Positions 208 to 56,293 of a DNA stretch of 64,000 bases are shown here, one piece after another. The notes under the pieces are model-generated. The model saw only the letters and a program-made list of their open reading frames with translations. It was not told where the DNA came from and did no database searches. The translations under genes were made by a program, and so were the position numbers. Numbering within the stretch: position 1 is the stretch's first letter; every line of letters starts with the position of its first letter. Source of the DNA: Candidatus Nanoarchaeia archaeon (GTDB taxonomy: Archaea > Nanobdellota > Nanobdellia > Woesearchaeales > JACPBV01); NCBI GenBank assembly GCA_028279655.1, contig JANQNH010000005.1, forward strand, positions 144,962 through 208,961. The letters run 5' to 3'.

Positions 208-531
208 ATGTATCACCTATATAGTTAGTATATAGGTTGTTATATTCTCCTTATATATAAATATTTCGGAGAAAGATTTATGCTTAGAAAATGCCGAGCA
301 TTTTCTTTTGTATAAATGTTTGGTTAAACCTATCCCTCTTCCCCAGTTCCTCCTCCTTCGTATTACATACAAGAAAGAAGCAAGCTCTTTAAAATAAAAA
401 AATGCAGGGTGGGTGGAGGGCTATCAGTAAAAAGATAAAGAGCCAGGAGCGTTTCCCTCCCTTATTATTTATTACTGATTTAACTATAATTGATTCTCCT
501 CCTTATGAAAAATATTGATTAAATTGAATCT

Positions 532-1434: not shown

Positions 1435-1527
1435 CAGAGAAGAATGAATTTTTGTTTAAAAACCTATCCCAAAAGTACTAGAACTAAAACCAAAACATTT
1501 ATAAACTACAGCTAATATCCATTAACT

Positions 1528-3187: not shown

Positions 3188-3825
3188 TATAGGATATTTA
3201 AAGGTATCTCGTGATCGACAATATCTCCCTCTTTACCGCACTCCTCCCATAGCTTTGCATTATCCTCAACGCCCCTATCCCTAAAATACTTGACAACATA
3301 GTCATAATCATAAAAGTCAGCGATACCATCCAGATTATGCTTAAAGGCTATCTTAACCCTTGCATCCAGCTTGTCCTCAGCGCTCCTTGCACACCTTTTC
3401 CTGCAGTAAGCATCAAGTTCAGGATTATCATCAAGTAATTTCTGAAGCTCTTCCCTATAATTATCCTTATTGATCCAGGGAAAATAACCTGTAAGATGCA
3501 CCAGATCACCACCCAAGCTTAGTTCAATACCTGGAATAAATTCTCTTCCAGACTCAAAGTAACCATGTTTTTCCAAAGCCCTAAACATAGGCTCTATCCC
3601 GGATAGTGTATCATGGTCAGTCAATGCAAATATGGAAAGATCATCTCTATTGAACTGATACTCAAATGCAAGCTGTTTCTGTATCTCACCAAAATGTTTG
3701 CCAGTGGCCCACAAATTTCTGTCATGAATACCCATCACATGCCTGACTATCTCATCGGGGGTCTTAGCTCCATCAGAAAACAATGTATGTATATGCAGGT
3801 TTGCAAACTTTTCTCCCATAGGCAA
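3187..3825 (-). CDS. PHP-domain (polymerase/histidinol-phosphatase-like) metal-dependent phosphoesterase, N-terminal half
   Basis: HIHTLFSDG and ALTDHDTLSG are PHP motifs I and II. Its stop overlaps the start of the downstream ORF as TAATG. Confidence 0.55.
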   Translation of the reverse strand: MPMGEKFANLHIHTLFSDGAKTPDEIVRHVMGIHDRNLWATGKHFGEIQKQLAFEYQFNRDDLSIFALTDHDTLSGIEPMFRALEKHGYFESGREFIPGIELSLGGDLVHLTGYFPWINKDNYREELQKLLDDNPELDAYCRKRCARSAEDKLDARVKIAFKHNLDGIADFYDYDYVVKYFRDRGVEDNAKLWEECGKEGDIVDHEIPLNIL

Positions 3826-4013
3826 TCTTATCTAAGAGAATCAATACACACTTAAAAACTTAATCCTCTATTTGTATAGTCAGCTTAAGTGACAATACTA
3901 TCTGGTGCAGTTAACAGTTTATCTATCCGCCTTGTGTGAGTACTCGGACACTTCAGAGATTATAGTAACCGCACGAAACGTAGTATTATCGCGAGTAACC
4001 TAATTGGCTATAT

Positions 4014-4499
4014 CTAATTTCTTAAGACATCCGGGAATCTTCTTAAGTAATCCTCCATAGCTTCTCTAATCTGCAGCAGGTACTGGGCTTTGAAATCCGG
4101 ATTGCCAGCTTCAAGCAGCTTCTTTTCATACTTAGGAGCAAGATGAGAACTCATTTTAATAAAACTAGCTGCCCCTTCATCTTCAATAGTTGTAATCCCA
4201 GTTTTCTTGATATAATCCGTAAGAACCCTCAATATTCCAGGCCCGTAAGAAGTGCCATTCACCCTAAAGAAAGGGCTTATTGAATTAAGGCTTATAGTTA
4301 TACTTGCAGCAAATGGCTCTTCTAGTATCCCTATGACCATCCTGTCATTCTTAGTTCTAAAAGGCCTGGAAAAATCAATATCAAATCTCCCATTTTCCTC
4401 ATATATTCTTATAGTCTCCTCTAACCCACATTCAGCCTTACCGGTAAAAGCAGCAAAGTGCAGAAACTCACCATTGGTTGCATATATTCTTTCAGACAT
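4014..4499 (-). CDS. Hypothetical protein
   Basis: 161-aa ORF with no recognisable motif. Preceded by the conserved promoter module at 4506..4532. Confidence 0.4.
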   Translation of the reverse strand: MSERIYATNGEFLHFAAFTGKAECGLEETIRIYEENGRFDIDFSRPFRTKNDRMVIGILEEPFAASITISLNSISPFFRVNGTSYGPGILRVLTDYIKKTGITTIEDEGAASFIKMSSHLAPKYEKKLLEAGNPDFKAQYLLQIREAMEDYLRRFPDVLRN

Positions 4500-4596
4500 T
4501 ACTGTCAGAAATGCAAATCCACTTAAAAATCTAACGCCAGATAGAATTTTTTTCCATTATGAAATATTTATAACTAGTGACTTAAAAAATTATCAT

Positions 4597-6451: not shown

Positions 6452-6505
6452 ATTAAGAACCCATTTTAAGCTTCAAGAATGAATTTCTACTTAAAAATCT
6501 AACCT

Positions 6506-8263: not shown

Positions 8264-8325
8264 AGAACCTCTTTCAGCCTTCAGGAATCAATTTTTATTT
8301 AAAAAACTATCCTGCAAGAACTCTT

Positions 8326-8760: not shown

Positions 8761-9477
8761 TTACCTAAATGCCCCAGTCCCTTCTTCCAGAAAAGCCTTT
8801 ACTAGAACAGGCATTGGAGGAAAAACCAGAGGGCTGGCATCCAATCTCTTACTAAGAGACCTTATCAGGGAACTATCTCTTGGCAGAGTACAATGGCATC
8901 TATCATCCTCCACATACCTTTCATAATTAAAGACGCACTCATCGCTTGGTCCAGCAAAGTAGATCGCTCTGCATGTTATAGGTCTTACTTCATAGATACC
9001 GCAGGATGAATCTTCAAGAAAAGGGCATTCCACATCCCCATGTTTCTCCCTAAGCTGCCTTTTGAATCTGGGTTCTCCAATAAGATCAATAGACCTGATC
9101 AATTTCCCTACTTCCTCAACATCAACTTCACTACAATACCTTCTGATACTCTCCATAAAATCCTTGCCTTCGGTATTGATGTAATGGGCTATAAGGACAA
9201 CCTCTGGCCAGGAAGCCTTGACAGCCTGATAACAGCAATTGTCACATCCATCATAACAGCCTATTTCCCCGCTTCTTTTAGCCACCTCATTCTGCCGAAA
9301 AGCATTACTAAGGTCTATACCTTCATGCAATGTATCTACAGCAAGAGCAACCCTATACAAAACATCATCCACCCCCCCTTCAATCTCAGGCAGCTCCAGA
9401 TTACCACTATGAACATATTTCGCTACAGCATCTACTACCCTTTCTTCTAATTCATCCCTTGCCCTTAAGATAGTCAT
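8761..9477 (-). CDS. YkgJ/UPF0153 family putative Fe-S (zinc/iron-chelating) protein
   Basis: CYDGCDNCC (C-x3-C-x2-CC) and ECPFL...CGIYEVRPITCR match the COG0727 pattern. The track start at 9486 is TTG, so the likely ATG is at 9477. Confidence 0.6.
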   Translation of the reverse strand: MTILRARDELEERVVDAVAKYVHSGNLELPEIEGGVDDVLYRVALAVDTLHEGIDLSNAFRQNEVAKRSGEIGCYDGCDNCCYQAVKASWPEVVLIAHYINTEGKDFMESIRRYCSEVDVEEVGKLIRSIDLIGEPRFKRQLREKHGDVECPFLEDSSCGIYEVRPITCRAIYFAGPSDECVFNYERYVEDDRCHCTLPRDSSLIRSLSKRLDASPLVFPPMPVLVKAFLEEGTGAFR

Positions 9478-9483
9478 AACCCT

Positions 9484-9510
9484 CAAGAATCAACATCCAC
9501 TTAAAAACCT
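9484..9510 (-). promoter_or_regulatory. Conserved BRE/TATA promoter module (minus sense AGGTTTTTAAGTGGATGTTGATTCTTG)
   Basis: A near-identical copy lies at 10092..10119. Related copies are at 3835..3861, 6474..6500, 4506..4532, 1441..1465, 8282..8310 and 7307..7334. The TATA begins about 30 nt before each start codon. Confidence 0.5.
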
Positions 9511-9548
9511 ATTGAAAGGCTATCAAACCTAGTTAAAGTACGTTTGTA

Positions 9549-10109
9549 CTATATAATCTGCCTAAGATACCCTACTATAGATTTGACTGCCATAGCTGCC
9601 CAATGTTCAGAATACCAGAACTTCTGAATTCTATTCTTATAGATCGTGAAGTCCCTCAGGTTCTCCATATCTATCCAATCACTCCCTGAAAATCTATCAT
9701 ACCATAACTCTTCAAAATAGTTTGCTTCCTCGTTATTTTCAGGGGTCTCTCCTATGCCATTGTATCTCCGTGATCCATCATAGGTAACAAGTTCTGAGTT
9801 TAACACATGATTGAGCACAACATGGCCTATCTCATGCCCCAAGGTCCTTAATCTCTTGTCAGGAGACAACTTAGAATTAAGAACGATAGCATATCCTCCA
9901 TTGATAAATATAGTAATTCCATCGACATCCTCTAGAATACCTGAATCATCATCCCTTATCCTGTAGATTCTGTTATCCCTTGCAAAGTCCTCGAATGTGT
10001 AGCTATCGCTAGTTTTCTTATAGATATCTGATATAATATTCTCTATACGCTGTTTTTTCTCTGCTAACATTTCAAGAGAACCATTTTTCCTAAGAGAATC
10101 AACATCCAC
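9549..10109 (-). CDS. ImmA/IrrE-like HEXXH zinc metallopeptidase
   Basis: LRTLGHEIGHVVLNH carries the HExxH motif in the context typical of the ImmA/IrrE family. The track start is GTG, and an alternative ATG lies at 10070. Confidence 0.5.
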   Translation of the reverse strand: MDVDSLRKNGSLEMLAEKKQRIENIISDIYKKTSDSYTFEDFARDNRIYRIRDDDSGILEDVDGITIFINGGYAIVLNSKLSPDKRLRTLGHEIGHVVLNHVLNSELVTYDGSRRYNGIGETPENNEEANYFEELWYDRFSGSDWIDMENLRDFTIYKNRIQKFWYSEHWAAMAVKSIVGYLRQII

Positions 10110-10946
10110 TTAAAAACCTGTCTTTTTGAAGACATCCATATAAAATCTGACTTTCTCAGGAAGATGCTTAGCCATCATAGCCTTTCTTTTATCATTCATT
10201 TGCTTTGATTCATAATACTTTCCTTTAGAAGGGTTAAATGTAGAGATCCACTTCTCTCTTTCATGCTGCATACCCATCTGCAGATACAATTCCTTAAGTT
10301 CATCAGATATTGGCTTTCTATGCCCAGCCTGCACATATATCCCTCCTTCTTTCATCCTTTCTCTTATCCCTTCTATGGATCGCTGAGATCTCTCCACTCC
10401 CCCAGAAGTTAGAGAAGAATTAGCGTAGATCAGATCAGCCCTATTCAACTCTAATTCACCAGGCTTTTCATGATTTGAAACATAGAAATCCACATTAGCT
10501 AATCCAAGCCTCTCCTTCCTCCTATTAGCCTGAGCTATCATGCTTCTGCTCTTATCATAACCTATAAAATCCACAGCTTCATCTTCATAAAGCTTTGCAA
10601 GAAAACAAAGATCCAATCCAGTCCCACATCCAGCATCAACAACCACTGATTGTGGTTTTTTATCAATCATCCTTGCCAGTTCCGGTAGAAAACTCATCCT
10701 ATAATCATAATCCAGAGGAAACCCCTGGGATAGGTCATGATAATAAGGCATATTTGGAAATCGGATTCTCCATATAAGACCTGTACTTATCAAACGCCTA
10801 AGCCCCCTGCCAAAAACACCTTTACCCTTAGCTACAAACCTGTCAACAGATTCCTTATCAGCTAATCTTTCTATCCCTAGCTCATTGAGATAATCCACCA
10901 GCTGCCTTCTAGCACTTCTAGGTTTATCTTTTCTAGGCTTATTCAT
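10110..10946 (-). CDS. Class I SAM-dependent methyltransferase
   Basis: VVVDAGCGTGLDLCFLA is motif I (DxGxGxG). Its stop abuts the next gene. Confidence 0.65.
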   Translation of the reverse strand: MNKPRKDKPRSARRQLVDYLNELGIERLADKESVDRFVAKGKGVFGRGLRRLISTGLIWRIRFPNMPYYHDLSQGFPLDYDYRMSFLPELARMIDKKPQSVVVDAGCGTGLDLCFLAKLYEDEAVDFIGYDKSRSMIAQANRRKERLGLANVDFYVSNHEKPGELELNRADLIYANSSLTSGGVERSQRSIEGIRERMKEGGIYVQAGHRKPISDELKELYLQMGMQHEREKWISTFNPSKGKYYESKQMNDKRKAMMAKHLPEKVRFYMDVFKKTGF

Positions 10947-21194: not shown

Positions 21195-21876
21195 CCTCAT
21201 ACAACAACACCAAGGGCAACCCAATGATCAGCTGGGTTACAATATCAGGAGGGGTTATCAGGGCAGCCGCCAGGAAGATTATCACATATACATGAGCCCT
21301 GTACTTCTTCAATACCCAGACATTTACCACCCCTAGCTTGTTGAGTATTATCAGGAGCAACGGCATCTGAAAGACCAGCCCAAAAACAAGACAGCTCATA
21401 AGTACAAAATCTATAAACTTGCCGATAGACCACATATTCTCAACAATTCCCAAAGAAAGGTTTCCTAAAAAATATATAGCAATAGGCAGGAATATAAAAT
21501 ATGCAAACACAATCCCAATCATAAAGAGCAGAATAAATGATGGAAGCACCATCTTAATGCCTTCTTTTTCCTTCTTATTCAGCCCAGGTCGGATAAATAC
21601 AAGTATCTGATATATCAGCACAGGAAGACTGATTATAAATGCCGCGAGTAATCCGACCTTGATCTGTGTTAATATATACTCGACAGGACTCAGCCCTACA
21701 ACCTTCACATTTTCTAAGAAGATAAGGTCATTCATTATCCGTTTGATAAAAAAATCAGAAAACCCAAAGCCAGCTATAAAGCATAGGAAAAGAAACACCA
21801 GCACTACGATTAACCTCTTTCTCAATTCCCCAATATGCTCTTGTAGTGGTAGCTCCATCTTTCTCTCTACTACCAC
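21172..21876 (-). CDS. tatC: Sec-independent protein translocase TatC
   Basis: Six TM segments. LQEHIGELRKRL N-terminal motif, ITPPD and LYEVS motifs. Confidence 0.85.
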   Translation of the reverse strand: MVVERKMELPLQEHIGELRKRLIVVLVFLFLCFIAGFGFSDFFIKRIMNDLIFLENVKVVGLSPVEYILTQIKVGLLAAFIISLPVLIYQILVFIRPGLNKKEKEGIKMVLPSFILLFMIGIVFAYFIFLPIAIYFLGNLSLGIVENMWSIGKFIDFVLMSCLVFGLVFQMPLLLIILNKLGVVNVWVLKKYRAHVYVIIFLAAALITPPDIVTQLIIGLPLVLLYEVSLWFVR

Positions 21877-21906
21877 CTCCCTAAAGAAATTTTATCTCAA
21901 CTCCAT

Positions 21907-22013
21907 TGACAATGCTGCCAAGTGAAGTCCAAGCAAAACACGTTGCCCTACGAAAGTACTTGGCTGAATGTTCCATTACTAAACTTGCACGGAACGCAGC
22001 ATTGTCATGAATC
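21907..22013. repeat. 107-bp intergenic repeat, copy A (perfect 12-bp TIR: TGACAATGCTGC / GCAGCATTGTCA)
   Basis: Same length and termini as the copies at 31208..31314 and 32448..32554. Lies between tatA and tatC. Confidence 0.8.
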
Positions 22014-22025
22014 ATTAAAAATAAA

Positions 22026-22178
22026 CTAATCCCTAACCTTGCTCTTTTTGCCAGCCATACCTTCTCTGTAAGATTTTACGCTCTCTCCGATGCTTCTTGC
22101 CAGCTCAGGCAGTTTCTTTGGCCCAAAAAGAAGCAATATAATGAACAACACCACCAATATCTCAGGCATGCTTATCAT
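22026..22178 (-). CDS. tatA: Sec-independent translocase TatA/E (50 aa, not in ORF track)
   Basis: Translation MISMPEILVVLFIILLLFGPKKLPELARSIGESVKSYREG... has the TatA hallmark FG-x2-KLP followed by an amphipathic helix. Confidence 0.7.
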   Translation of the reverse strand: MISMPEILVVLFIILLLFGPKKLPELARSIGESVKSYREGMAGKKSKVRD

Positions 22179-25894: not shown

Positions 25895-27643
25895 ATGATA
25901 GGAGCTAAAAGAGAAAAAAGATTAAAGCCAGCACTATTATTAGTAGGAAGAAAAGCAAGAAATATTGCTACCCAGCTACGAAAACAAAGATATCTAACAT
26001 ACGTTTGCGATTCCCCGAATATGGCCTCCAGTGAAAATAACCCTACAGCTACCTTGGATAAGATACTCCAGAGAGACCATCCGGATATTGTGGTTTTGAC
26101 TGACAGAAAGGAAAAACTTAAAAGACAAGAAGCCCTTTATCGTTATATCAAAGAAAGCACCAAGACAAACAATTCTAGTGGTATAAGGGTGATAGTTCCA
26201 GAACAACTGACACCAACTATAAAAGAAGTTGATTCTGATGATAGCTACCTCCCAAATCCAGCAAACCTTGTTCAACTTGTCCGAAATGCAGGTGTTGTAT
26301 GGGCAAGAATGCTTAAATCAAGAGATATTCCAGATAGGGAGACAACACCTAAGATTTTTGTTGCTACAGGACCAACATGTGCAGGTAAGACAACAGTGAG
26401 TGACAGAGTTGCCAAGTTATATGAGAATGGAAGGCTTGTAATCAAGCATAGAGCAGGCATACTAAGACCTACTGATAGCAATGGGGTTGATTACATCGTA
26501 AGACCCGTATCCAGAATTCGAAAGGATATATCATTAGGAGTACTGCTAGGATATAGACACTATGGAAGAGAGTACGGAATACCTGTTATTGATATAAATA
26601 ATATTCGAAGCAGAGGAGAAGACGCAATGGTTGTTGTCGCAGAGACTGATGCAGTTGCAAAGATAATAAATCATTTCGGAGAAGATATTGTAAGGCCCAT
26701 CTATCTATATACCACAGCAGACGCACTAGAGACCCGCCTCTATAAAGAATTGGGACATAGAAGGTCTCCAGATGAGATAAAGCAAAGAATGAGAGAGATC
26801 AGAGAGCAGGAACTTGAATCGTTCTATGCGCATCCAGAGATGTTTGCATGGTGGGTCCCTAACCACAACCCATACTGCCCTGAAGATAGCAGAGACTTTG
26901 CAAAAGCCAGACAGAAATATTGGGATGATAGGGAGATAGCAAGATGTGTAAATTGGGTTGATACCATTATGAGATGGGAATATAATCATGATTGCGGTCA
27001 GATCCCTCAACATGAATGTGAGAGGCAATATGTAGATCATTTGGTCACTAGCTTATTTGGATACAATTCTGATGAATTGATTGAAAGGCTTAATGGAGGT
27101 AAAGATGTACACCTTGTTTCAAATGGACAATTGACCGATTATGTGAGATGGCTGCGTGAAGAACAGAACCAGCGTCATGTAGATACTGATCATGTTAGAC
27201 AAATTATAGACAAAAAGGTATTGCATGCATCTGACGACTCTACACTTACACTATTCTTTGAACCTTATATGGATATAAATAAGGACTCAGGAACGTGGTC
27301 AGACAAGGAAATTATTTTAGGTTATATTGAGGCCCTTGCTGGACCATCTGTCCACCGGAACAATATGCTGACGAAACTTGGTTCTTCTGCCTTTGGTAAT
27401 TGTGGATTGTCCAATGATGGAAGTTTTGTATTAGTAGATGATGGACTATTCTATGCCTTAAGCTTGCCCCCTTCATCTGTAAAGCAGGCTGGAAAAAGAA
27501 AAAGGTTAGCCATATCATTCCTTAGAGAACCAGTTAGGGATCCTGCAAGATTACAAAGCAGGACCTTCACACCTGAAGAAAGAGAGCATATGAGACATGC
27601 ACAGTATTCACTGATGAGTGCTCTAGCAATGCATAGATACTAA
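25895..27643 (+). CDS. Large P-loop (kinase-like) domain protein of unknown function
   Basis: Walker A is ATGPTCAGKTTV. 582 aa with a R/H/W/D-rich composition unlike its neighbours. Confidence 0.45.
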   Translation: MIGAKREKRLKPALLLVGRKARNIATQLRKQRYLTYVCDSPNMASSENNPTATLDKILQRDHPDIVVLTDRKEKLKRQEALYRYIKESTKTNNSSGIRVIVPEQLTPTIKEVDSDDSYLPNPANLVQLVRNAGVVWARMLKSRDIPDRETTPKIFVATGPTCAGKTTVSDRVAKLYENGRLVIKHRAGILRPTDSNGVDYIVRPVSRIRKDISLGVLLGYRHYGREYGIPVIDINNIRSRGEDAMVVVAETDAVAKIINHFGEDIVRPIYLYTTADALETRLYKELGHRRSPDEIKQRMREIREQELESFYAHPEMFAWWVPNHNPYCPEDSRDFAKARQKYWDDREIARCVNWVDTIMRWEYNHDCGQIPQHECERQYVDHLVTSLFGYNSDELIERLNGGKDVHLVSNGQLTDYVRWLREEQNQRHVDTDHVRQIIDKKVLHASDDSTLTLFFEPYMDINKDSGTWSDKEIILGYIEALAGPSVHRNNMLTKLGSSAFGNCGLSNDGSFVLVDDGLFYALSLPPSSVKQAGKRKRLAISFLREPVRDPARLQSRTFTPEEREHMRHAQYSLMSALAMHRY

Positions 27644-31127: not shown

Positions 31128-31207
31128 TATAAATAACCTCCATAACTCTTTATAGGAAGAAATTATTCACTATTTAAAAAGGTTTATGTTTTAAGCATCA
31201 ACTTCAG

Positions 31208-31314
31208 TGACAGTGCTGCCAAGCGAAGTCAACACAAAACACTTCAATCTGCGAAAGTATTTGGTTGAATCATATAAAAAATTATTCGCACGAAGCGCAG
31301 CACTGTCATTGATC
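31208..31314. repeat. 107-bp intergenic repeat, copy B (TIR TGACAGTGCTGC / GCAGCACTGTCA)
   Basis: Perfect 12-bp terminal inverted repeats with a compensatory A-to-G / T-to-C change relative to copy A. Its TCA supplies the stop codon of the 31306..31626 gene. Confidence 0.8.
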
Positions 31315-31626
31315 CCTTGACTTTTTCATCAACTTAGGCTTACAGCTCTCCACTTTATCATACTCAACAAAAGGATACCTCTTACATACAGTAGGCCTGA
31401 AATCATATATCTTACAGCAAGAACCACCATCAAAGAAAACACACCCTTTATCATCTCTCTTTAAGACCTCGCTCTTTATAAAATCATCAAAAACAACGAA
31501 GAAACCCTCCTCAAAACCCTTCTCTTTGATAGCAGAGATATCCTCCTTAGAAAGCTTCACCGTAAGATACCTACAACAATCACCACACCTTTCACACCTG
31601 AAGTTCGAAAGAGTTAGCATGATCAC
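31306..31626 (-). CDS. YkgJ/UPF0153 family small Cys-rich protein
   Basis: CERCGDCC (CxxCGxCC) and C...CKIYDFRPTVCKRYP match the family pattern. Confidence 0.6.
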   Translation of the reverse strand: MIMLTLSNFRCERCGDCCRYLTVKLSKEDISAIKEKGFEEGFFVVFDDFIKSEVLKRDDKGCVFFDGGSCCKIYDFRPTVCKRYPFVEYDKVESCKPKLMKKSRDQ

Positions 31627-32378
31627 TTGTTGCTTAACTTCTTTATATATTCAATAAGTTCAGTAGGTACTGGTAATATTATCGTGCTGTTTTTCTCAGA
31701 AGCGATCTCACCCATGGTCTGGAACAGCCTAAGCTGAAGCCCGGCAGGCTCTTTTCCAATAACCTTTGCAGCCTGTGCTAATTTCTCTGCAGCCTGTGAC
31801 TCCCCTAAAGCCAATGTTATTCTTGCCCTTCTGTCTCTTTCAGCCTCAGCTTGATGAGCCATCGCCCTCTTCATAGTATCTGGCAGTTCGATATCCTTGA
31901 TCTCTATCTTATCTACCTTGATCCCCCATGGATCAGTGTCCTTGTCAACAATAGCCTGTATCTTCTGAGATATCTCCTCTCTCTTCTGCAGGATATCATC
32001 AAGTTCAAACTCACCTACAATGTTCCTCATGGTTGTTTGAGCCAGTTGAGAGACAGCATAACCAAAAGTCTCTACCTCAAGTATTGCTTTATTTGCAGCA
32101 CTCACCTTATAGTAAAGCACCGCATTAACCTTTAAGCTGACATTGTCCTTGCTTACACATTCCTGGGAAGGGACATCCACAGCCTTCACCCTTAGGTCAA
32201 CTCTCTCCCATGTCTGTATGAGAGGAACAATCAACCTGAGTCCAGGTTCCATCATCCCTGTATACTTTCCAAGGGTAAACCTTACCCCTCGCTCGTATTG
32301 CCTTACAACCTTAAGGCTGCTTATCAAAATTACTATCAACCAAAAAATAACGATATTTACTGCACTAAATAATGCCAT
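31623..32378 (-). CDS. SPFH/band-7 (stomatin-like) protein
   Basis: N-terminal TM, followed by VVRQYERGVRFTLGK and a PHB-domain core. Confidence 0.8.
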   Translation of the reverse strand: MALFSAVNIVIFWLIVILISSLKVVRQYERGVRFTLGKYTGMMEPGLRLIVPLIQTWERVDLRVKAVDVPSQECVSKDNVSLKVNAVLYYKVSAANKAILEVETFGYAVSQLAQTTMRNIVGEFELDDILQKREEISQKIQAIVDKDTDPWGIKVDKIEIKDIELPDTMKRAMAHQAEAERDRRARITLALGESQAAEKLAQAAKVIGKEPAGLQLRLFQTMGEIASEKNSTIILPVPTELIEYIKKLSNK

Positions 32379-32447
32379 TCAAACCACCTCTTATGAAATC
32401 AACTAATCTTGATTTAAATACTTTTCTATAGCAGGTATGGACTTAAT

Positions 32448-32554
32448 TGAAAATGCTGCCAAGCGAAGTTCACGCTAGAGCCTATCCATATGCGACAATC
32501 CTTTCTTGAAATATCAACAAGTAATTAGCACGAAGCGCAGCATTTTCACGAATC
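32448..32554. repeat. 107-bp intergenic repeat, copy C (TIR TGAAAATGCTGC / GCAGCATTTTCA)
   Basis: Perfect 12-bp terminal inverted repeats with a compensatory C-to-A / G-to-T change. Its TCA supplies the aminotransferase stop codon. Confidence 0.8.
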
Positions 32555-33595
32555 CAAATACTTTTCTATCCTGCTTAATCCTTCCTCAATCTTGTCTACA
32601 TCCAGGGCATAGCTCAACCTGATCCTGTCAGGTGCCCCGAACCACTCTCCAAGATATGTTATCACCTTGTGTTTCTTAAACAAATCCCACACCATCTTTC
32701 TAGGATCCTTCACCTTAGGTAATACATAAAAAGCCCCTTCAGGATTCCAAAGTTCAAGCCCTAGGTCCATCAACCCCTTGTAGACCACATCCCTTCTCTC
32801 TTTCCAGATTGCAACCTGGTTATCTACATAAGCAGACGGAACCTTGGTCGCCTCATAGGCCATCTCCTGCCCAAGGATATTTGTATTCATTGAAGAATGA
32901 GTCTTTATCTCTATAACATCATCAACTATACTCCTATCATTAGAATAAAGATAGCCTATCCTAAGTCCGCACATTGCAAAGGTCTTTGAGAAACTGTTTA
33001 TTGTTACCACCTGTGGCCCCTTGAGCATATAGTTCTCCCTCACATATATGAGGTCTTTGTAAACCTCATCAGATATTATGGTTATATCAAGGTCTGAACA
33101 TAACCTCTCTATCTCCTTAAGTGTACTGACCTCCTGTACCCTGCCTGTAGGATTAGAAGGGGAATTGATCAATACTGCTTTGCATCCCCTTACCTTGTTG
33201 TCAAAGTCCGAAATATCAATCTTTCCCCTTATAGTCTCTGTAAAAACAGGCTCCAGATTATTGAAATTTATCATAGGCAGATATGAATAGTAATATGGCT
33301 TATGAAGCAGGATCTTATCTCCTGGCTTGCATATCGATCTGAATGTAAGGTCAAGAGCCTCAGAAGCACCATTCGTTATGACAAAATCATCAGCCGTACC
33401 CCCATACTGCTTTGCCAATGCCTTTCTTAGGTTTACCTGTCCAGGTATCAGCCCATACTTGAACTGCCTGTACTTAGGCAATATCCTAAACACCCTTTCC
33501 GGGGGTGGAAGATCTGGTTGTCCGCTTCCGAAACTTATCATTCCATCTCCTTGGACACCGATGAATATTGATGGACTTAGTAGTTTGTCTTTCAT
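32546..33595 (-). CDS. Class I/II PLP-dependent aminotransferase (aspartate aminotransferase-like)
   Basis: ITNGASEALD and SFSKTFAMCGLRIGYLYS (PLP-lysine region). 349 aa. Confidence 0.8.
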   Translation of the reverse strand: MKDKLLSPSIFIGVQGDGMISFGSGQPDLPPPERVFRILPKYRQFKYGLIPGQVNLRKALAKQYGGTADDFVITNGASEALDLTFRSICKPGDKILLHKPYYYSYLPMINFNNLEPVFTETIRGKIDISDFDNKVRGCKAVLINSPSNPTGRVQEVSTLKEIERLCSDLDITIISDEVYKDLIYVRENYMLKGPQVVTINSFSKTFAMCGLRIGYLYSNDRSIVDDVIEIKTHSSMNTNILGQEMAYEATKVPSAYVDNQVAIWKERRDVVYKGLMDLGLELWNPEGAFYVLPKVKDPRKMVWDLFKKHKVITYLGEWFGAPDRIRLSYALDVDKIEEGLSRIEKYLDS

Positions 33596-33763: not shown

Positions 33764-34837
33764 ATGTCTTTGGGTAACTTTGTAAAGATTCTAATCTTTT
33801 TATTTGTTCTAATCCTCTTGATAATACCAGTATCCGCTAGATGGATCCAGTGGGTCAATTGCGATGATCTGTTTTTAAGAAAAAGAATAACCCCTCAACA
33901 AACCTTTAATAGTACTGAAAAGATTTGTTTTTATGGTTCTGGTTTCAGCGGTGAGACCTATACTATCAGGCTTAGAGAGACTGTTAAGAATCTAACAAGA
34001 ATCTTAACCGTACCGGTCAATAATGAGGTAATAAGTTCTGTAGAAGGATACTCCTTAAGCTCGATTGAGCCAGGCGTGTACACCTTGATGGGTTTGTATG
34101 AAAGTAACTATGTATGTAGCAACCAGGATGGGCAGACCCATTGTATCCCTGAGGATAAAAACTGTACCTTTTGGAAGTTCAAGGGAGATACTGGAAGATG
34201 CGGGAGAGGTAGATCAAGAAACTGCGAGATCGATTTTGAATTTGTTGATCCTGACACCGATGGAGATTCTTGGTCTGATAGCTGTGATGCATTCCCAAAC
34301 GATGCTTCTGATTGGATTGATATCGATGGAGATGGTTCTGGTAATAATAAGGATGTTGATGACTTTAATATCTTGATTATCAGTGAACCGATCATACCAG
34401 GAAACAATGAGTCAGGAGAATCAGGAACTGGCAACGGGGCTGGTGGAGGCTCTGGTTCAGGAGGAAACGCCAGAAAATGTGCACCAGAGTATGAATGTAC
34501 AGATTGGAGCGTTTGCATCAATGGAAGGCAGATAAGGGAATGTTGGATTATTAATGACTGCATCGGGGAACCAGCCCCTTTGGAAAGAAACTGCATTGAA
34601 AACACCCAAGAACCTGCTGAAAATGAGGAACCCTATAGCATGACACAAGAGGAATCTGTTCCAGATTCCCAATCACAGGAACCCCCTACTACGGATGAAA
34701 GTGAAGGTATGTCTCTTATTACAGGTGCTGCTGTAGTTAATCTTACAGAACCTAGGTTCTATACAGGCGTTAGTGCAATTTTCATAATTATAAGTATTAT
34801 GCTGCTTTGGATAAAATTGAGAAAATCCAGATCATAG
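33764..34837 (+). CDS. Secreted Cys-rich surface protein with calcium-binding Asp-rich (TSP3-like) repeats and C-terminal TM anchor
   Basis: Signal peptide present. Acidic repeat region DPDTDGDSWSDSCD...DIDGDGSGNN, then a Gly-rich linker and a C-terminal hydrophobic helix with KLRKSRS. Confidence 0.5.
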   Translation: MSLGNFVKILIFLFVLILLIIPVSARWIQWVNCDDLFLRKRITPQQTFNSTEKICFYGSGFSGETYTIRLRETVKNLTRILTVPVNNEVISSVEGYSLSSIEPGVYTLMGLYESNYVCSNQDGQTHCIPEDKNCTFWKFKGDTGRCGRGRSRNCEIDFEFVDPDTDGDSWSDSCDAFPNDASDWIDIDGDGSGNNKDVDDFNILIISEPIIPGNNESGESGTGNGAGGGSGSGGNARKCAPEYECTDWSVCINGRQIRECWIINDCIGEPAPLERNCIENTQEPAENEEPYSMTQEESVPDSQSQEPPTTDESEGMSLITGAAVVNLTEPRFYTGVSAIFIIISIMLLWIKLRKSRS

Positions 34838-36492: not shown

Positions 36493-36766
36493 TTTATCTC
36501 CTTATTAATTTTAGTTATGCTCCACCAATAATCGAATGTGGGGGTGGGACATCCACCTTAGTTGTTCAATGATGGGGAGGATATAATATTTAGCGTAGCT
36601 AAATACCTGCTTTATCTAAAAGAATCAATAAGCCATTTTTAAATGTTTTGTTTTCTTCAATATCATTTCCTCATAAAACCAATCGAAAGATTTATAAATT
36701 AGCTATTCAGTAATTGATATATATTAGTCATTTTAGTAAAATTAGAACTAAAAGAGGTGTTTTATT

Positions 36767-37228
36767 ATGAAAAAAAAGGGTTCATTGAGTCTGTCTGTTA
36801 ATGCTATAGTGGTATTGATTCTTGCGATCGTTATGTTGGGTCTCGGCCTGGGTTTTATAAGAGGTATGTTCGGTAAGGTCTCCACACAGGTTGAACAGCA
36901 GATATCTTCCGAGAGAGAGCCAGCAATCCCAACAGCCTCTCAACCACTGACTCTATCTAGAGAGATGATCATAACCCTTTCAGATCAGGACCAGGTAGTC
37001 AAGGCAAGTCTTTTTAATCCAACTAATGCTGTGATCACAGCAATCCCTTCAGTTACCTGTAGTGCTTTGGCAGTAACTGAGAAGGCAAACGAACGAACAA
37101 TAAACCAGGGAGAATTCAAGACATATGATATCCTTCTTGATATACCGGTGTCTGCCCCTACTACAGACCTTTGCGAGATAACTATCGATGCTTATAAGAA
37201 AGATATAACCATCAAAATAACAGAGTGA
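36767..37228 (+). CDS. Archaeal type IV pilin-like protein (class III signal peptide)
   Basis: MKKKGSLSLSVNAIVVLILAIVMLGLGLGF: a positively charged N-terminus, a G/S cleavage context and a hydrophobic stretch. Paralogous to the next ORF. Confidence 0.55.
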   Translation: MKKKGSLSLSVNAIVVLILAIVMLGLGLGFIRGMFGKVSTQVEQQISSEREPAIPTASQPLTLSREMIITLSDQDQVVKASLFNPTNAVITAIPSVTCSALAVTEKANERTINQGEFKTYDILLDIPVSAPTTDLCEITIDAYKKDITIKITE

Positions 37229-37238
37229 GGTATTTAAA

Positions 37239-37715
37239 ATGAAGAACAAAAAAGCAGCACTTGAATTATCAGTCACTGCCATAGTCGTATTGATTCTTGC
37301 AATAGTTATGTTGGGCCTGGGCCTTGGATTTGTAAGGGGTATGTTCGGTAAGGTAACCACAACCTTTGAGGAACAGATCGCTACAGAACCAGAACCACCG
37401 AAACCATCTGCCTCAGATCCTATCACATTGTCAAAGGGAAGGGTAATAGTGCATCCAGGAGACACTGCTGTAGTAAAGGTTTCTCTCTACAATCCAACTA
37501 ATGCAGCTTATGCAGCCTTTGTTCCAGCAACTACCTGCACTGGTATAACTATTAACACTATAGCTGCTGCTTCTAGAGCCGTACCTGTTGCTGAATTCAG
37601 GACATGGAGCATGGTCTTTACAGTACCATCCACCCAAGCAGCTGCTACTGCTTTATGCCAGGTTACCCTTGGAACACACGGTTCTATCGATTTTACTACA
37701 GTTGTAAAAGACTAA
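37239..37715 (+). CDS. Archaeal type IV pilin-like protein, paralog
   Basis: The N-terminus is nearly identical to 36767..37228 (IVVLILAIVMLGLGLGFVRGMFGKV). Confidence 0.55.
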   Translation: MKNKKAALELSVTAIVVLILAIVMLGLGLGFVRGMFGKVTTTFEEQIATEPEPPKPSASDPITLSKGRVIVHPGDTAVVKVSLYNPTNAAYAAFVPATTCTGITINTIAAASRAVPVAEFRTWSMVFTVPSTQAAATALCQVTLGTHGSIDFTTVVKD

Positions 37716-46554: not shown

Positions 46555-48339
46555 ATGAAAAAAGAGGAGGTCAAAGCAGATTATTTTTTTGAAGTAAGTT
46601 GGGAGATATGCCATCAGGTTGGAGGCATATACACAGTGATTAAGTCCAAAGCAGGCAAGCTATATCAGCTATATAAGGAAAAATATTTCTTGATAGGTCC
46701 GTATTATGCCAAAGAAGCAGCTATCAAGTTTGAAGCTAGGAAGCCTCCAAAAGAGATAGAAAGGATATTCAGCGAACTTAAGAAAAACAAGATAGAATGT
46801 TATTTCGGTAAATGGAACATTGAAGGAGTAAAAGTAAATACCATATTGATAGATTTCTCTAAATATATGATCAAGGCAAATGAGATAAAGAGCAGGCTGT
46901 GGAAGGATTTCAAGATAGATTCCTTTAATTCAGGTGAAGAGTTTAACACATGGGTTACATGGGGAACTACAGCAGGTATGCTGTTAGAAGGCCTCAGAAA
47001 AAAACTTAAGGGAAAGATAGTTGCTCAGTTTCACGAGTATCTGACAGGAGCTGCCCTGCTGCACCTAAAGAAGAACAAGGTCAAGATTGCTACTGTCTTC
47101 ACAACGCATGCAACCTATCTAGGCAGGACGCTGGCAAGTGCAGGAATACCTCTTTATGAGGTCATAAAGAAGATCAAGCCAAAGGAGAATGCATATAAGT
47201 ATAAGATTCCAGACAGATATTCTTTGGAGAAAGCAGCAGCACTAAACGCAAACGTCTTCACAACAGTGTCCGATATAACTGCACTTGAAGCAACCAATCT
47301 TGTAGGCAGAAGACCAGATATCGTGCTCCCAAACGGTCTTGATATATCCAAATTCCCAGCATTGGAACAAAGGGCTATCAGCCATTCAAAGTTCAAGACA
47401 CAGATACTTGACTTTGCAAAGGTTTTCTTCTTTCCTTATTACAGGTTTGACCTGGATAATACCCTCCTATACTTCATAGCAGGCAGATATGAGTTCAAGA
47501 ATAAGGGGGTTGACATATTCATTAAGTCATTGGGACAACTGAACAAAAAGTTGATAATGGAAAAGAGCGATAGGAACATCATAGCGTTGATATGGGTGCC
47601 TTCTAAAGTAGAGGGGATAGACAAGACCTTATTGCAGAATAAGATCAATTATGAGGGTGTGGAGAACTTCATGGACCGCTCCCTTGATGATATAAAGGCG
47701 AACATAATAGACTCCATTGTCAACCAGAAGCTCCCTACAACAAGAGAACTATTCAGCGGAACTTTCTACTATCAGATGAAGAAGAAGATGATGGAATTCA
47801 AGAAAAAAGGAAAGCCGCTTGTAGTAACCCATAACCTTGCTGACAAAAATGACATCATAATTAAAGCCTTAAAAAAAGCCGGCCTTAACAATTCCATAAG
47901 GGATAAGGTAAAGGTCATATACTATCCTGTATACCTTACAGGGGCTGACGGACTGATAGATCTCAGCTATTACGATGCAATTATGGGGTGTCACTTAGGT
48001 ATCTTCCCTTCTTATTATGAACCATGGGGATATACCCCTTTAGAGACCGGCGCATTAGGCGTCTCCGCCTTAACAACAGATCTTAGTGGATTTGGAAAGT
48101 ATCTTCTGAAGAAGCATAAGAAATGCAAAGGTATCTGGGTCCTGAAAAGGCAGAACACAAAGGAAGAACTATCCATAGCAAGACTAACAAGTATTATGTA
48201 TGATTATGCAAAGTTAACCCAGAGGCAGAGGATACAAAAGAAATTGGAGGCAAAGAGCGTATCCAATCTGGCTGATTGGGAAAATATGGTTAACTATTAC
48301 ATCAAGGCACATAATATGGCCTTAAAAAAGGTAAGATAG
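46555..48339 (+). CDS. GT3-family (eukaryote-type) glycogen synthase-like glycosyltransferase
   Basis: N-terminal FFEVSWEICHQVGGIYTVIKSKA matches the GT3 Glycogen_syn signature (FEVAWEVANKVGGIYTV). 594 aa. Confidence 0.6.
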   Translation: MKKEEVKADYFFEVSWEICHQVGGIYTVIKSKAGKLYQLYKEKYFLIGPYYAKEAAIKFEARKPPKEIERIFSELKKNKIECYFGKWNIEGVKVNTILIDFSKYMIKANEIKSRLWKDFKIDSFNSGEEFNTWVTWGTTAGMLLEGLRKKLKGKIVAQFHEYLTGAALLHLKKNKVKIATVFTTHATYLGRTLASAGIPLYEVIKKIKPKENAYKYKIPDRYSLEKAAALNANVFTTVSDITALEATNLVGRRPDIVLPNGLDISKFPALEQRAISHSKFKTQILDFAKVFFFPYYRFDLDNTLLYFIAGRYEFKNKGVDIFIKSLGQLNKKLIMEKSDRNIIALIWVPSKVEGIDKTLLQNKINYEGVENFMDRSLDDIKANIIDSIVNQKLPTTRELFSGTFYYQMKKKMMEFKKKGKPLVVTHNLADKNDIIIKALKKAGLNNSIRDKVKVIYYPVYLTGADGLIDLSYYDAIMGCHLGIFPSYYEPWGYTPLETGALGVSALTTDLSGFGKYLLKKHKKCKGIWVLKRQNTKEELSIARLTSIMYDYAKLTQRQRIQKKLEAKSVSNLADWENMVNYYIKAHNMALKKVR

Positions 48340-48376
48340 AAAAATATAAAAAGGCTAGTTCTAAACATAACTCACT

Positions 48377-49162
48377 ATGAAAGCAATAATACTAGCAGGG
48401 GGATACGCAAAAAGGCTCTGGCCCGTTACCAAAAACATGCCAAAGCAGCTATTACCAGTAGCTGGAAAGCCAATAATTGAGTATCCGATTGAGAATATTG
48501 AACTAACAAAAAGGATAAAAGAACTCATAATCTCTATAAATGCCTATTTTGAGTTCAATTTTAGAGAATGGTTTACAAAATATCAATTCAGAAAAAAGAC
48601 TAAGTTGGTGATAGAGAAAACATTTTCAGAAGAGGAGAAACTTGGTTCTATTGGGGCCCTTCATTACCTGATTGACAAGCTAGGGATAAAAGATGACATA
48701 CTTATCATAGGAGGGGATAACCTGTTTGAATTTTCTCTTAGGAAATTTATCAATTACTACAAGCAACAAAAGACCAGCGTTGTAGGATTATACGATATAA
48801 AGGACAAAGCAAAGGTTAAAGGAAGGTATGGTATAGTAGAGCTTGACAATAATGATAAAATTACAAGCTTCCAGGAGAAGCCACAAAACCCAAAAACATC
48901 GCTTGTAAATACTGCATGCACGATATTATCAAAAGAAGACATTAAGTTGATACCTCAATACATAGAGGAAGGTAACAATAAAGATGCCTTTGGATATCTT
49001 ATTGAATGGATAGCAAAGAAAAAACCAGTACATGGATTTACCTTTGACTCATCATGGTTTGATATAGGTTCCTTTGAGGCATATGATGAAGCCAACCTCT
49101 ACTATAGGCAAAAAAGGATATCAGCTATGAGGGAAAGAAAGGTGATTGTTAACCTAGAATAG
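48377..49162 (+). CDS. Sugar-1-phosphate nucleotidyltransferase (glucose-1-phosphate NDP-transferase-like)
   Basis: MKAIILAGGYAKRLWPVT is the G-x-G-T-R-L motif of NTP_transferase. 261 aa. Confidence 0.7.
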   Translation: MKAIILAGGYAKRLWPVTKNMPKQLLPVAGKPIIEYPIENIELTKRIKELIISINAYFEFNFREWFTKYQFRKKTKLVIEKTFSEEEKLGSIGALHYLIDKLGIKDDILIIGGDNLFEFSLRKFINYYKQQKTSVVGLYDIKDKAKVKGRYGIVELDNNDKITSFQEKPQNPKTSLVNTACTILSKEDIKLIPQYIEEGNNKDAFGYLIEWIAKKKPVHGFTFDSSWFDIGSFEAYDEANLYYRQKRISAMRERKVIVNLE

Positions 49163-56257: not shown

Positions 56258-56277
56258 TGAAAATGCTGCCAAGCGAG
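56258..56277. repeat. Truncated copy (left terminus only) of the 107-bp repeat family
   Basis: TGAAAATGCTGCCAAGCGAG is identical to the copy C left end. The sequence then diverges into the end of the mdh gene. Confidence 0.6.
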
Positions 56278-56293
56278 TTCTTCATAACCCAAT

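Follow-up and report, generated by a model that had tools for sequence, protein, structure and literature searches.

What kind of element is a repeat of about 100 bp that recurs, always in one orientation, beside gene ends of a compact archaeal genome? The question is raised by a 64-kb stretch of contig JANQNH010000005.1 (the window, which here always means this whole stretch), in which an original prediction had noted three copies, A, B and C, whose terminal inverted repeats (TIRs) change in compensated fashion from copy to copy. The covariation was taken as a sign of selection for a base-paired stem rather than of a decaying mobile repeat, and a role in 3' untranslated regions (3' UTRs) was suggested, whether in stability, termination, processing or as a small RNA (sRNA). 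Comparison with related metagenome loci leads to a different answer: the elements are insertions, that is, mobile DNA. They are probably non-autonomous hairpin elements of DPANN archaea, similar to REPINs (hairpins formed by doublets of repetitive extragenic palindromic, REP, sequences) and to MITEs (miniature transposable elements that carry inverted repeats), with spread or survival coupled to replication. DPANN genomes are very small and tightly packed, and they are usually thought to offer selfish DNA little room.

The predicted starts of the three copies (21907, 31208 and 32448) and their common orientation were borne out, but the predicted length of 107 bp was not: from TIR to TIR each copy measures 101 bp, and the larger figure counts 6 flanking nt. 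The 12-bp TIRs are perfect in every copy, as first reported, being TGACAATGCTGC/GCAGCATTGTCA in A, TGACAGTGCTGC/GCAGCACTGTCA in B and TGAAAATGCTGC/GCAGCATTTTCA in C, and the substitutions by which they differ, at stem positions 4 and 6, are indeed compensated. Each terminal motif has 3 exact matches in the window, where about 0.8-1.0 would be expected by chance even with 3 mismatches allowed. The impression that the interiors of A and B are similar and that of C diverged holds only weakly, with identities of 72% between A and B, 71% between B and C, and 64% between A and C. A covariance model built from the repeat family was used to scan the window and the metagenome loci (designated by L numbers), and it revealed in the window a fourth full copy (D), a left-end remnant (E) and a mini-hairpin, the last two with filters off. 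The window thus holds 4 full copies and 2 derivatives in 64 kb, or ~70 copies per Mb, and copies A through E all lie on the plus strand.

Relatives in which the same spacers are empty provide evidence for insertion. The closest syntenic relative, L020 (a JGI contig whose ribosomal protein S6e is 90% identical), matches the window from 19.6 to 42 kb, and sites A, B and C are all empty in it: the spacers between the aminotransferase and Band_7 genes, the CxxCxxCC and S6e genes, and the TatA and TatC genes measure 23, 56 and 33 bp, respectively. No copy is present anywhere in the 20.5 kb of this locus. The reverse case also occurs, with L018 filled at 3854-3954 and the window empty at 48339-48377. 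Five further relatives of the S6e region are without copies at B and C, having one at another site (L022, L029) or none (L026, L028), and the occupied sites differ in every relative examined.

Alignment of filled with empty sites shows that the target is duplicated over 9-18 bp on insertion. At C, two perfect copies of AAATACTTTTCTAT, which L020 has once, enclose a block of 126 bp. The last aminotransferase codons and the TATA box of the Band_7 gene both fall within this 14-mer, so that its duplication preserved the two of them. The inserted block at C (32420-32555) consists of AGCAGGTATGGACTTAAT, the core and CGAATCC; that at A (~21897-22014) consists of TCAACTCCAT, the core and TGAATCA, and the duplication there is short or degenerate. 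At B the duplicated unit is CATCAACTT(C)AG, 9-12 nt, and the empty site in L020 carries a single CACCAACTCAGG. Other duplications include a perfect 18-mer in L019, a match of 15/17 in L002 and one of ~20 nt in L011. Lengths therefore run from 9 to ~20 bp with no fixed value, and the distance from the TIR varies as well. When all flanks were compared, direct repeats from flank to flank exceeded the 95th percentile of mismatched-flank controls in 5/23 copies.

Insertion sometimes rewrites the last codons of a gene and supplies its stop. The terminal TCA of B and C is, as the original prediction had it, the stop codon of minus-strand open reading frames (ORFs) ending at 31306 and 32546. Copy B provides the stop of the CxxCxxCC-domain gene (31306-31626, minus), and the 18 nt at 31309-31326 encode a substituted C-terminus, KSRDQ-stop as against FKT-stop in L020. 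Copy C does the same for the aminotransferase gene (32546-33595, minus), the C-terminus changing from YLNQG-stop in L020 to YLDS-stop. Copy A sits in the spacer that separates TatA (stop at 22026) from TatC (start at 21876), its end 18 nt from the stop of the 53-aa TatA gene. Across the family, ~19/25 copies lie 0-22 nt after a stop codon, and insertion is shown to be into short spacers of a compact genome, usually no more than ~20 nt from a stop codon and upstream of the next promoter. What lets the element survive there is the long duplication of the target, which restores the promoter next to it. A hairpin repeat at the density seen in the window is thus rewriting gene ends and supplying stops in a compact DPANN genome.

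The copies also insert into or beside one another, form tandem dimers and decay to solo hairpins. In L011 a unit with the stem GGGGAATGTTGC/GCAACATTCCCC lies inside the left end of another unit, with ~15 nt duplicated, and in L005 a full unit lies within a gutted one, of which a stem-only derivative remains as outer shell. Tandem dimers with an overlapping palindromic junction, GCAGCATTGaCAATGCTGC, are found in L011, L013 and L015, and a solo mini-hairpin (L009, 5071-5092) occupies the site orthologous to the L015 dimer. It is from the empty sites, the target duplications, the nested, tandem and internally deleted copies, and the occupancy that differs among relatives that mobility follows.

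The orientation of the copies does not follow the genes. Of the copies that abut a stop codon, ~13 have the sense orientation of the gene concerned and ~9 the antisense, and 3-4 more lie between divergent genes, a mixture that, by the criterion set in the original prediction, tells against a directional role in 3' UTRs. The uniform antisense pattern of the window (4/4) reflects its layout: every copy is on the plus strand, and the adjacent genes are, as it happens, minus-strand genes. Where one contig holds several copies, they agree in strand (11/11 comparisons over six contigs). Whole-sequence GC skew was rejected as a proxy for replication, since it is confounded by gene orientation, and skew was computed at fourfold-degenerate third positions, the genes of each strand being taken separately. 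Genes on the strand of the element show a fourfold GC (GC4) skew of about -0.2 to -0.55 and a positive fourfold AT (AT4) skew, and genes on the other strand give the mirror image, which is the signature of replication-type strand asymmetry. The top strand of the element lies on the C>G, A>T strand in 15/15 AT-rich contigs. Overall the rule holds in 15/17 contigs (sign test p = 0.002), the exceptions being the distant outliers L001 and L017.

L022 and L029 make a telling comparison: their genes agree in order and direction, their skews are of opposite polarity, and the orientation of the element tracks the skew. Orientation is shown to be fixed by the strand asymmetry of the chromosome, not by transcription or genes. 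Under the customary reading of skew, the strand written here as the top one would lie on the leading-strand template. If the coupling to skew holds genome-wide, the repeat would offer an easy way to read the direction of replication in uncultured archaea without known origins, and the coupling would point to single-strand, replication-coupled mobility in archaea. Over the window and loci L003-L029, the asymmetry at fourfold sites is strong and mirror-symmetric, with a GC4 skew of about -0.2 to -0.5 in the genes of one strand and of +0.1 to +0.5 in those of the other, and no switch of polarity occurs across the 64-kb window. Among syntenic regions, the polarity of the window, L020, L022 and L028 is opposite to that of L026 and L029.

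Pairing of the ends was counted on a curated alignment, A4, of 27 copies from the window and the metagenomes. The terminal 12-bp stem is 94% paired, with two-sided changes at 8/12 pairs, and the observed pairing and covariation are reached in 0/500 shuffles and in no slid register. An inner pair between alignment columns 17 (the Y of CCAAGYGAAGT) and 93 (an R of GCACGRARCGC) is C-G in 17 copies, U-A in 5 and U.G in 5, and is never unpaired; its covariation is significant at p = 0.003 (one-sided Fisher test by hand, C(10,5)/C(27,5)). This pairing means that the helix resumes for two more pairs beyond a 3-nt bulge. The covariation is significant, so pairing of the ends is maintained, and passive decay alone does not describe the family. 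To this extent the predicted base-paired stem is upheld, but the further idea that covariation excludes a mobile element is not. In the parts of the literature drawn on here, compensatory changes are common in the hairpins of REPINs (PMC3116915) and are reported for bcr1, a mobile hairpin repeat (PMC3184786). A caution for RNA-motif discovery follows, as a covarying stem alone cannot separate a functional RNA from mobile hairpin DNA.

Read 5' to 3', the element starts with the 12-bp terminal stem, the 3-nt bulge and the 2-bp helix with its covarying Y-R pair, and its interior holds a left block (CCAAGYGAAGT), a right block (TCGCACGRARC), a moderately conserved centre and two spacers. Conservation is 81-89% and 85-86% in the two subterminal blocks, 72-82% in the stem and 45-52%, which is near random, in the spacers. 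The spacers show the local neutral strand skew, and by this measure both appear to evolve neutrally. In L015, the second unit of the dimer has an extra ~54-nt insertion in its 3' spacer (8990-9045), which shows that large indels are tolerated in the spacers. Past the 12 + 2 bp the ends differ (CCAAGYGAAGT versus the reverse complement GCTCCGTGCGA); since the two subterminal blocks are not inverted copies of each other, the element is polar. Within the interior, two pairings compete for TGTGA, one with the neighbouring CTCGCA and one with the distal TCGCA, and two-sided covariation is seen in neither. The copies fold better than shuffled sequence (z = -2 to -5), and the G.T wobbles of the inner helices (5:0 and 24:2) speak for the top strand as the one that folds.

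The features of the window are collected in Table 1. Copy D, though degenerate, adds a further compensated change: its stem is TGACAATACTAT / GTAGTATTATCG, in which TGCTGC/GCAGCA has become TACTAT/GTAGTA. It also keeps remnants, AGTCAGCTT / AATTGGCTA, of an outer stem. Many metagenome copies have this outer stem, AGTCAACTT...AAGTTGACT, with an asymmetric loop before the 12-bp stem, making a unit of ~140 bp; copies A-C are without most of it. Copy E is located between the stop of a malate/lactate dehydrogenase gene and an NYN-domain gene, and the mini-hairpin derives from a C-type copy by internal deletion that left the stem alone.

Table 1. Copies of the repeat, their derivatives and the associated target duplications in the 64-kb window.
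Feature	Coordinates	Strand	Remarks
Copy A core	21907..22007	+	101 bp; covariance model 105 bits
Copy B core	31208..31308	+	101 bp; covariance model 117 bits
Copy C core	32448..32548	+	101 bp; covariance model 94.5 bits
Copy D, degenerate full copy	3890..3991	+	covariance model 55 bits, E ~1e-13
Copy E, left-end remnant TGAAAATGCTGCCAAGCGAGTT	56258..56280	+	13 bits, filters off
Mini-hairpin AGAAAATGC-CGA-GCATTTTCT	281..303	.	23 nt, model with filters off
Left direct duplication at B, CATCAACTTCAG	31196..31207	+	filled versus empty alignment
Right direct duplication at B, CATCAACTTAGG	31327..31338	+	filled versus empty alignment
Left target duplication at C, perfect 14-mer AAATACTTTTCTAT	32406..32419	+	holds TATA box of downstream Band_7/SPFH gene
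Right target duplication at C, 14 bp	32556..32569	+	encodes last retained aminotransferase codons

If the repeats are replication-coupled hairpin elements, as proposed, the folded single strand would be recognised by a mobilising or processing machinery, which would explain why the stem covaries, and the asymmetric subterminal blocks would be sequence-specific contacts of that machinery. Insertion, or survival after insertion, would be coupled to the replication fork, following the logic of single-strand transposition in IS200/IS605 elements and of REPINs with their REP-associated tyrosine transposases (RAYTs). Alternatively, deletion at the fork might remove hairpins of one orientation more often than those of the other, and products like the mini-hairpins would be expected from it.

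Several observations weigh against this proposal. The window ORFs tested and the neighbourhoods of the copies yielded no transposase, HUH/Y1 enzyme, Cas1 or integrase, and no RAYT (Y1 HUH) gene was seen in ~330 kb of loci, where Pfam annotation covered part of the genes. Target duplication is foreign to IS200/IS605 elements and REPINs, yet perfect duplications flank copy C (14 bp) and the L019 copy (18 bp); such long and variable duplications misfit IS200/IS605-type enzymes, and the actual pathway may be different. The sequence between duplication and core varies from 0 to 29 nt on the left and from 1 to 23 nt on the right, which leaves the mobile unit without sharp ends. Signals of the folding strand conflict, in that wobbles in the terminal stem show no asymmetry (4:5) and folding energies make the bottom strand slightly the more stable. 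Finally, the assignment of leading and lagging strands comes solely from the usual skew convention, and the copies were drawn from related populations, so that the counts are not fully independent. A possible, if doubtful, account of the mechanism is an undescribed archaeal route, in which a folded strand would be read by its shape and by two asymmetric motifs and inserted at the fork one way round, repair leaving duplications of 9-20 bp. If this were true, archaea would have in this family an equivalent of REPIN/RAYT or IS200-type systems that works by different chemistry, and the family might last over the long term as a genomic 'symbiont', passed on vertically in the highly reduced genomes of DPANN archaea.

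The RNA role that was first envisaged would make the repeat a structured element of 3' UTRs (a stabiliser, terminator, processing site or sRNA) selected by the host, with mobility only distributing the copies. The proximity of ~19/25 copies to stop codons would fit such a role, as would the strong conservation of unpaired motifs, an inner pair that accepts U.G and never C.A, and folding significantly better than that of shuffled sequence; bcr1 and bacterial repeats of the ERIC (enterobacterial repetitive intergenic consensus) type are, in the portions of PMC3184786 used here, described as acting on mRNA. A protein might perhaps bind the internal loop rich in G and A (GCGAAG / GGAGC), whose sequence recalls the kink-turn (K-turn) Kt-7. 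That resemblance is confined to GCGAAG/GGAGC, and a K-turn was rejected because the register does not fit: two Watson-Crick pairs part the 3-nt bulge from G18.A92 and A19.G91, and in the alternative register position 2b is U. Beyond this, sense and antisense copies would make different RNAs, orientation tracks replication-type skew and not transcription, gene 3'-end occupancy is not conserved even between close relatives, no conserved promoter of the element's own is evident, and neutral-looking spacers are unlikely to be guides. No Rfam family matched at gathering thresholds over the whole window, and a full-length copy gave chance-level hits (E >2). The flanking genes, moreover, are functionally unrelated housekeeping genes (P-type ATPase, SecD/F, HisRS, NurA, PfkB kinase and others). 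With the empty sites added, the suggested role as 3' UTR element, terminator or sRNA finds no support and we regard it as quite improbable, though a secondary effect at the RNA level on mRNAs that read through the element may occur. Two other RNA candidates were also rejected. An H/ACA-like or other guide RNA, with two variable blocks around a conserved hairpin, is contradicted by the neutral skew in the blocks and by the absence of a transcription link or conserved promoter, and a bulge-helix-bulge splicing motif by a helix of 12 bp, not 4, between the bulges.

Other explanations accept mobility, or recombination, but assign it to familiar enzymes. A classical MITE would be a deletion derivative of a TIR-bounded insertion sequence, moved as double-stranded DNA by a DDE transposase acting in trans; its covariation would come from subfamilies, and its orientation bias from selection after insertion, for instance through orientation-dependent instability of the hairpin at the fork. 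TIRs with mostly conserved TG...CA ends, flanking direct duplications, the lack of an ORF, the many copies, nesting, and presence or absence that differs among relatives would all fit such an element. A published census lists a Woesearchaea genome at 105 MITEs per Mb, as compared with ~70 copies per Mb in the window, without characterising the MITEs, and the present family may be among them (PMC11602168). That said, a transposase that reads duplex DNA does not predict compensated changes at 8/12 stem positions, nor the strongest conservation in two different unpaired subterminal blocks; duplications of 9 to ~20 bp at a variable distance from the TIR are unlike the fixed stagger of DDE enzymes; and no transposase was seen among the ORFs tested or beside the copies. 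Moreover, strict coupling of orientation to strand skew is, to our knowledge, no known property of DDE MITEs, and a classical MITE seems on balance unlikely. Integron attC sites, or other tyrosine-recombinase sites on folded single strands, would have to be scattered in the chromosome. Like the repeats here, attC sites (for example those of the Vibrio cholerae repeats) are imperfect palindromes, of ~60-140 bp, that directly follow ORFs in a common orientation, conserve structure more than sequence and act as folded single strands, and the outer stem AGTCAAC...GTTGACT of many metagenome copies is one mismatch from RYYYAAC...GTTRRRY. These outer core sites are absent from window copies A-C, however, and attC sites bound mobile gene cassettes beside an integrase gene, whereas here the housekeeping genes between copies are syntenic in element-free relatives, so that the moved unit is the repeat alone. 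It is accompanied by target duplications, and no integrase gene was seen nearby. Synteny and empty sites thus largely refute an integron, which we take to be hardly credible. A casposon derivative, brought to mind by the 14-bp duplication at C, was not supported either, as the duplication length varies, the sites are scattered and no Cas1 was seen.

By behaviour, the closest analogues are REPINs, bcr1/ERIC-type repeats and, for replication-linked polarity, IS200/IS605 elements. Work by Ton-Hoang and colleagues in 2010, to which PMC3116915 and PMC6006769 refer, is said to have placed insertion and excision of IS200/IS605 elements on the lagging-strand template, tying their orientation to the fork. 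Both these elements and palindrome-associated transposable elements (PATEs) resemble the present family in being polar and in having hairpins recognised by structure, so that stems can covary, and the replication-tied orientation of PATEs has its match in the agreement of strand within contigs and on the C/A-rich strand of all 15 AT-rich contigs. IS200/IS605 elements differ, however, in having a separate subterminal hairpin at each end, where one long-range terminal stem is found here, and in inserting 3' of a fixed 4-5 nt target without duplication. The placement of the top strand on the leading-strand template, which follows from the usual convention, may also be the opposite of their arrangement.

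REPINs, as described in the portions of PMC3116915 consulted, are likewise ~100-bp non-coding extragenic hairpins with two conserved ends and a poorly conserved spacer, present in many copies with tandem clusters and singlet remnants, and they are thought to move as folded single strands; those portions describe no strict coupling of orientation to strand skew such as is seen here. The ends of the present element cease to mirror a single REP past the 12-bp stem and so form no REP doublet, the host is archaeal and not bacterial, targets are duplicated, and no RAYT-like gene was found in the loci examined. Because it makes target duplications and has no REP doublet, the element does not qualify as a REPIN or a PATE. 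The bcr1 repeats of the Bacillus cereus group and the ERIC and Correia-type repeats are, in the parts of PMC3184786 drawn on, MITE-like TIR repeats of 100-155 bp at gene ends with flanking direct repeats, whose distribution is not conserved among related strains, whose fold is maintained by compensatory changes, and which can be co-transcribed with neighbours and change gene ends. They are bacterial and have short, fixed duplications of 2-5 bp; an RNA-level effect is documented for them only, and no replication-strand bias is noted for them in those parts of the paper. New in the family described here is the combination of a DPANN host, long variable duplications, rewriting of gene ends and promoters, and coupling of orientation to skew in all AT-rich contigs examined.

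The range of the family, whose termini read TGACAATGCTGCC...GGCAGCATTGTCA, was surveyed by searching for both ends. The combined left and right pattern occurred in 1 contig of the genome collection and in 18 metagenome loci, and the covariance model added copies missed by the fixed pattern, so that ~30 further copies are known on metagenome contigs; the viral contigs and plasmids searched held none. Two distant relatives stand apart. One consists of two inverted units between convergent genes on a GC-richer WOR8 contig (L017, 4252-4450), and the other lies on a 2-kb contig binned as Methanosarcinales (L001, 1905-2008). Both keep TGCTGCCAAGCGAAGT and GCACGNAGCGCAGCA, which the search pattern demanded, and their interiors are unrelated. 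As for the host of the window, the neighbouring genes include the archaeal markers S6e and eIF2-gamma along with TatA/TatC, G+C is ~39%, and the nearest named S6e homologues are from Woesearchaeota or Nanoarchaeota; on these grounds the host is judged to be a Woesearchaeota-like DPANN archaeon.

Other features of these regions deserve mention. In the CxxCxxCC/S6e spacer of L026 (9860-9935), where the window has copy B, there is a different palindromic element (CAAGAACCACC ... GGTGGTTCTTG, with a ~50-nt loop), and short spacers seem, to judge from such cases, to be reused by several hairpin elements. The spacer beside the copy in L022 (3760-3880) has repeated ACCGTAAAGTTT / ACCGTTACGGTTTCG motifs. 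Two window genes, 25895-27643 (+) and 33764-34837 (+), are without counterparts in L020 and look like insertions in the lineage of the window. They were considered as transposases and rejected: the first encodes a 582-aa P-loop, kinase-like protein with weak similarity to guanylate kinase, and the second a Cys-rich protein of 357 aa, secreted or in the membrane, that matches no family. A 176-nt direct repeat of 72% identity (36764-36939 and 37239-37414) corresponds to the adjacent paralogous genes 36752-37225 and 37221-37712. Lastly, a promoter-like motif, AGGTTTTTAAGTGGAT-N4-GATTCTT on the minus strand, stands just before at least 7 minus-strand genes in the first 11 kb of the window (1440-1469, 3825-3859, 4494-4533, 6475-6504, 8283-8312, 9472-9511 and 10083-10117). 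The motif may be a TATA/initiator module shared by these apparently leaderless genes, or else the signal of a regulon; among their products are a CxxCxxCC protein, a GT2 glycosyltransferase, an M78 peptidase-like protein and several without assigned function.

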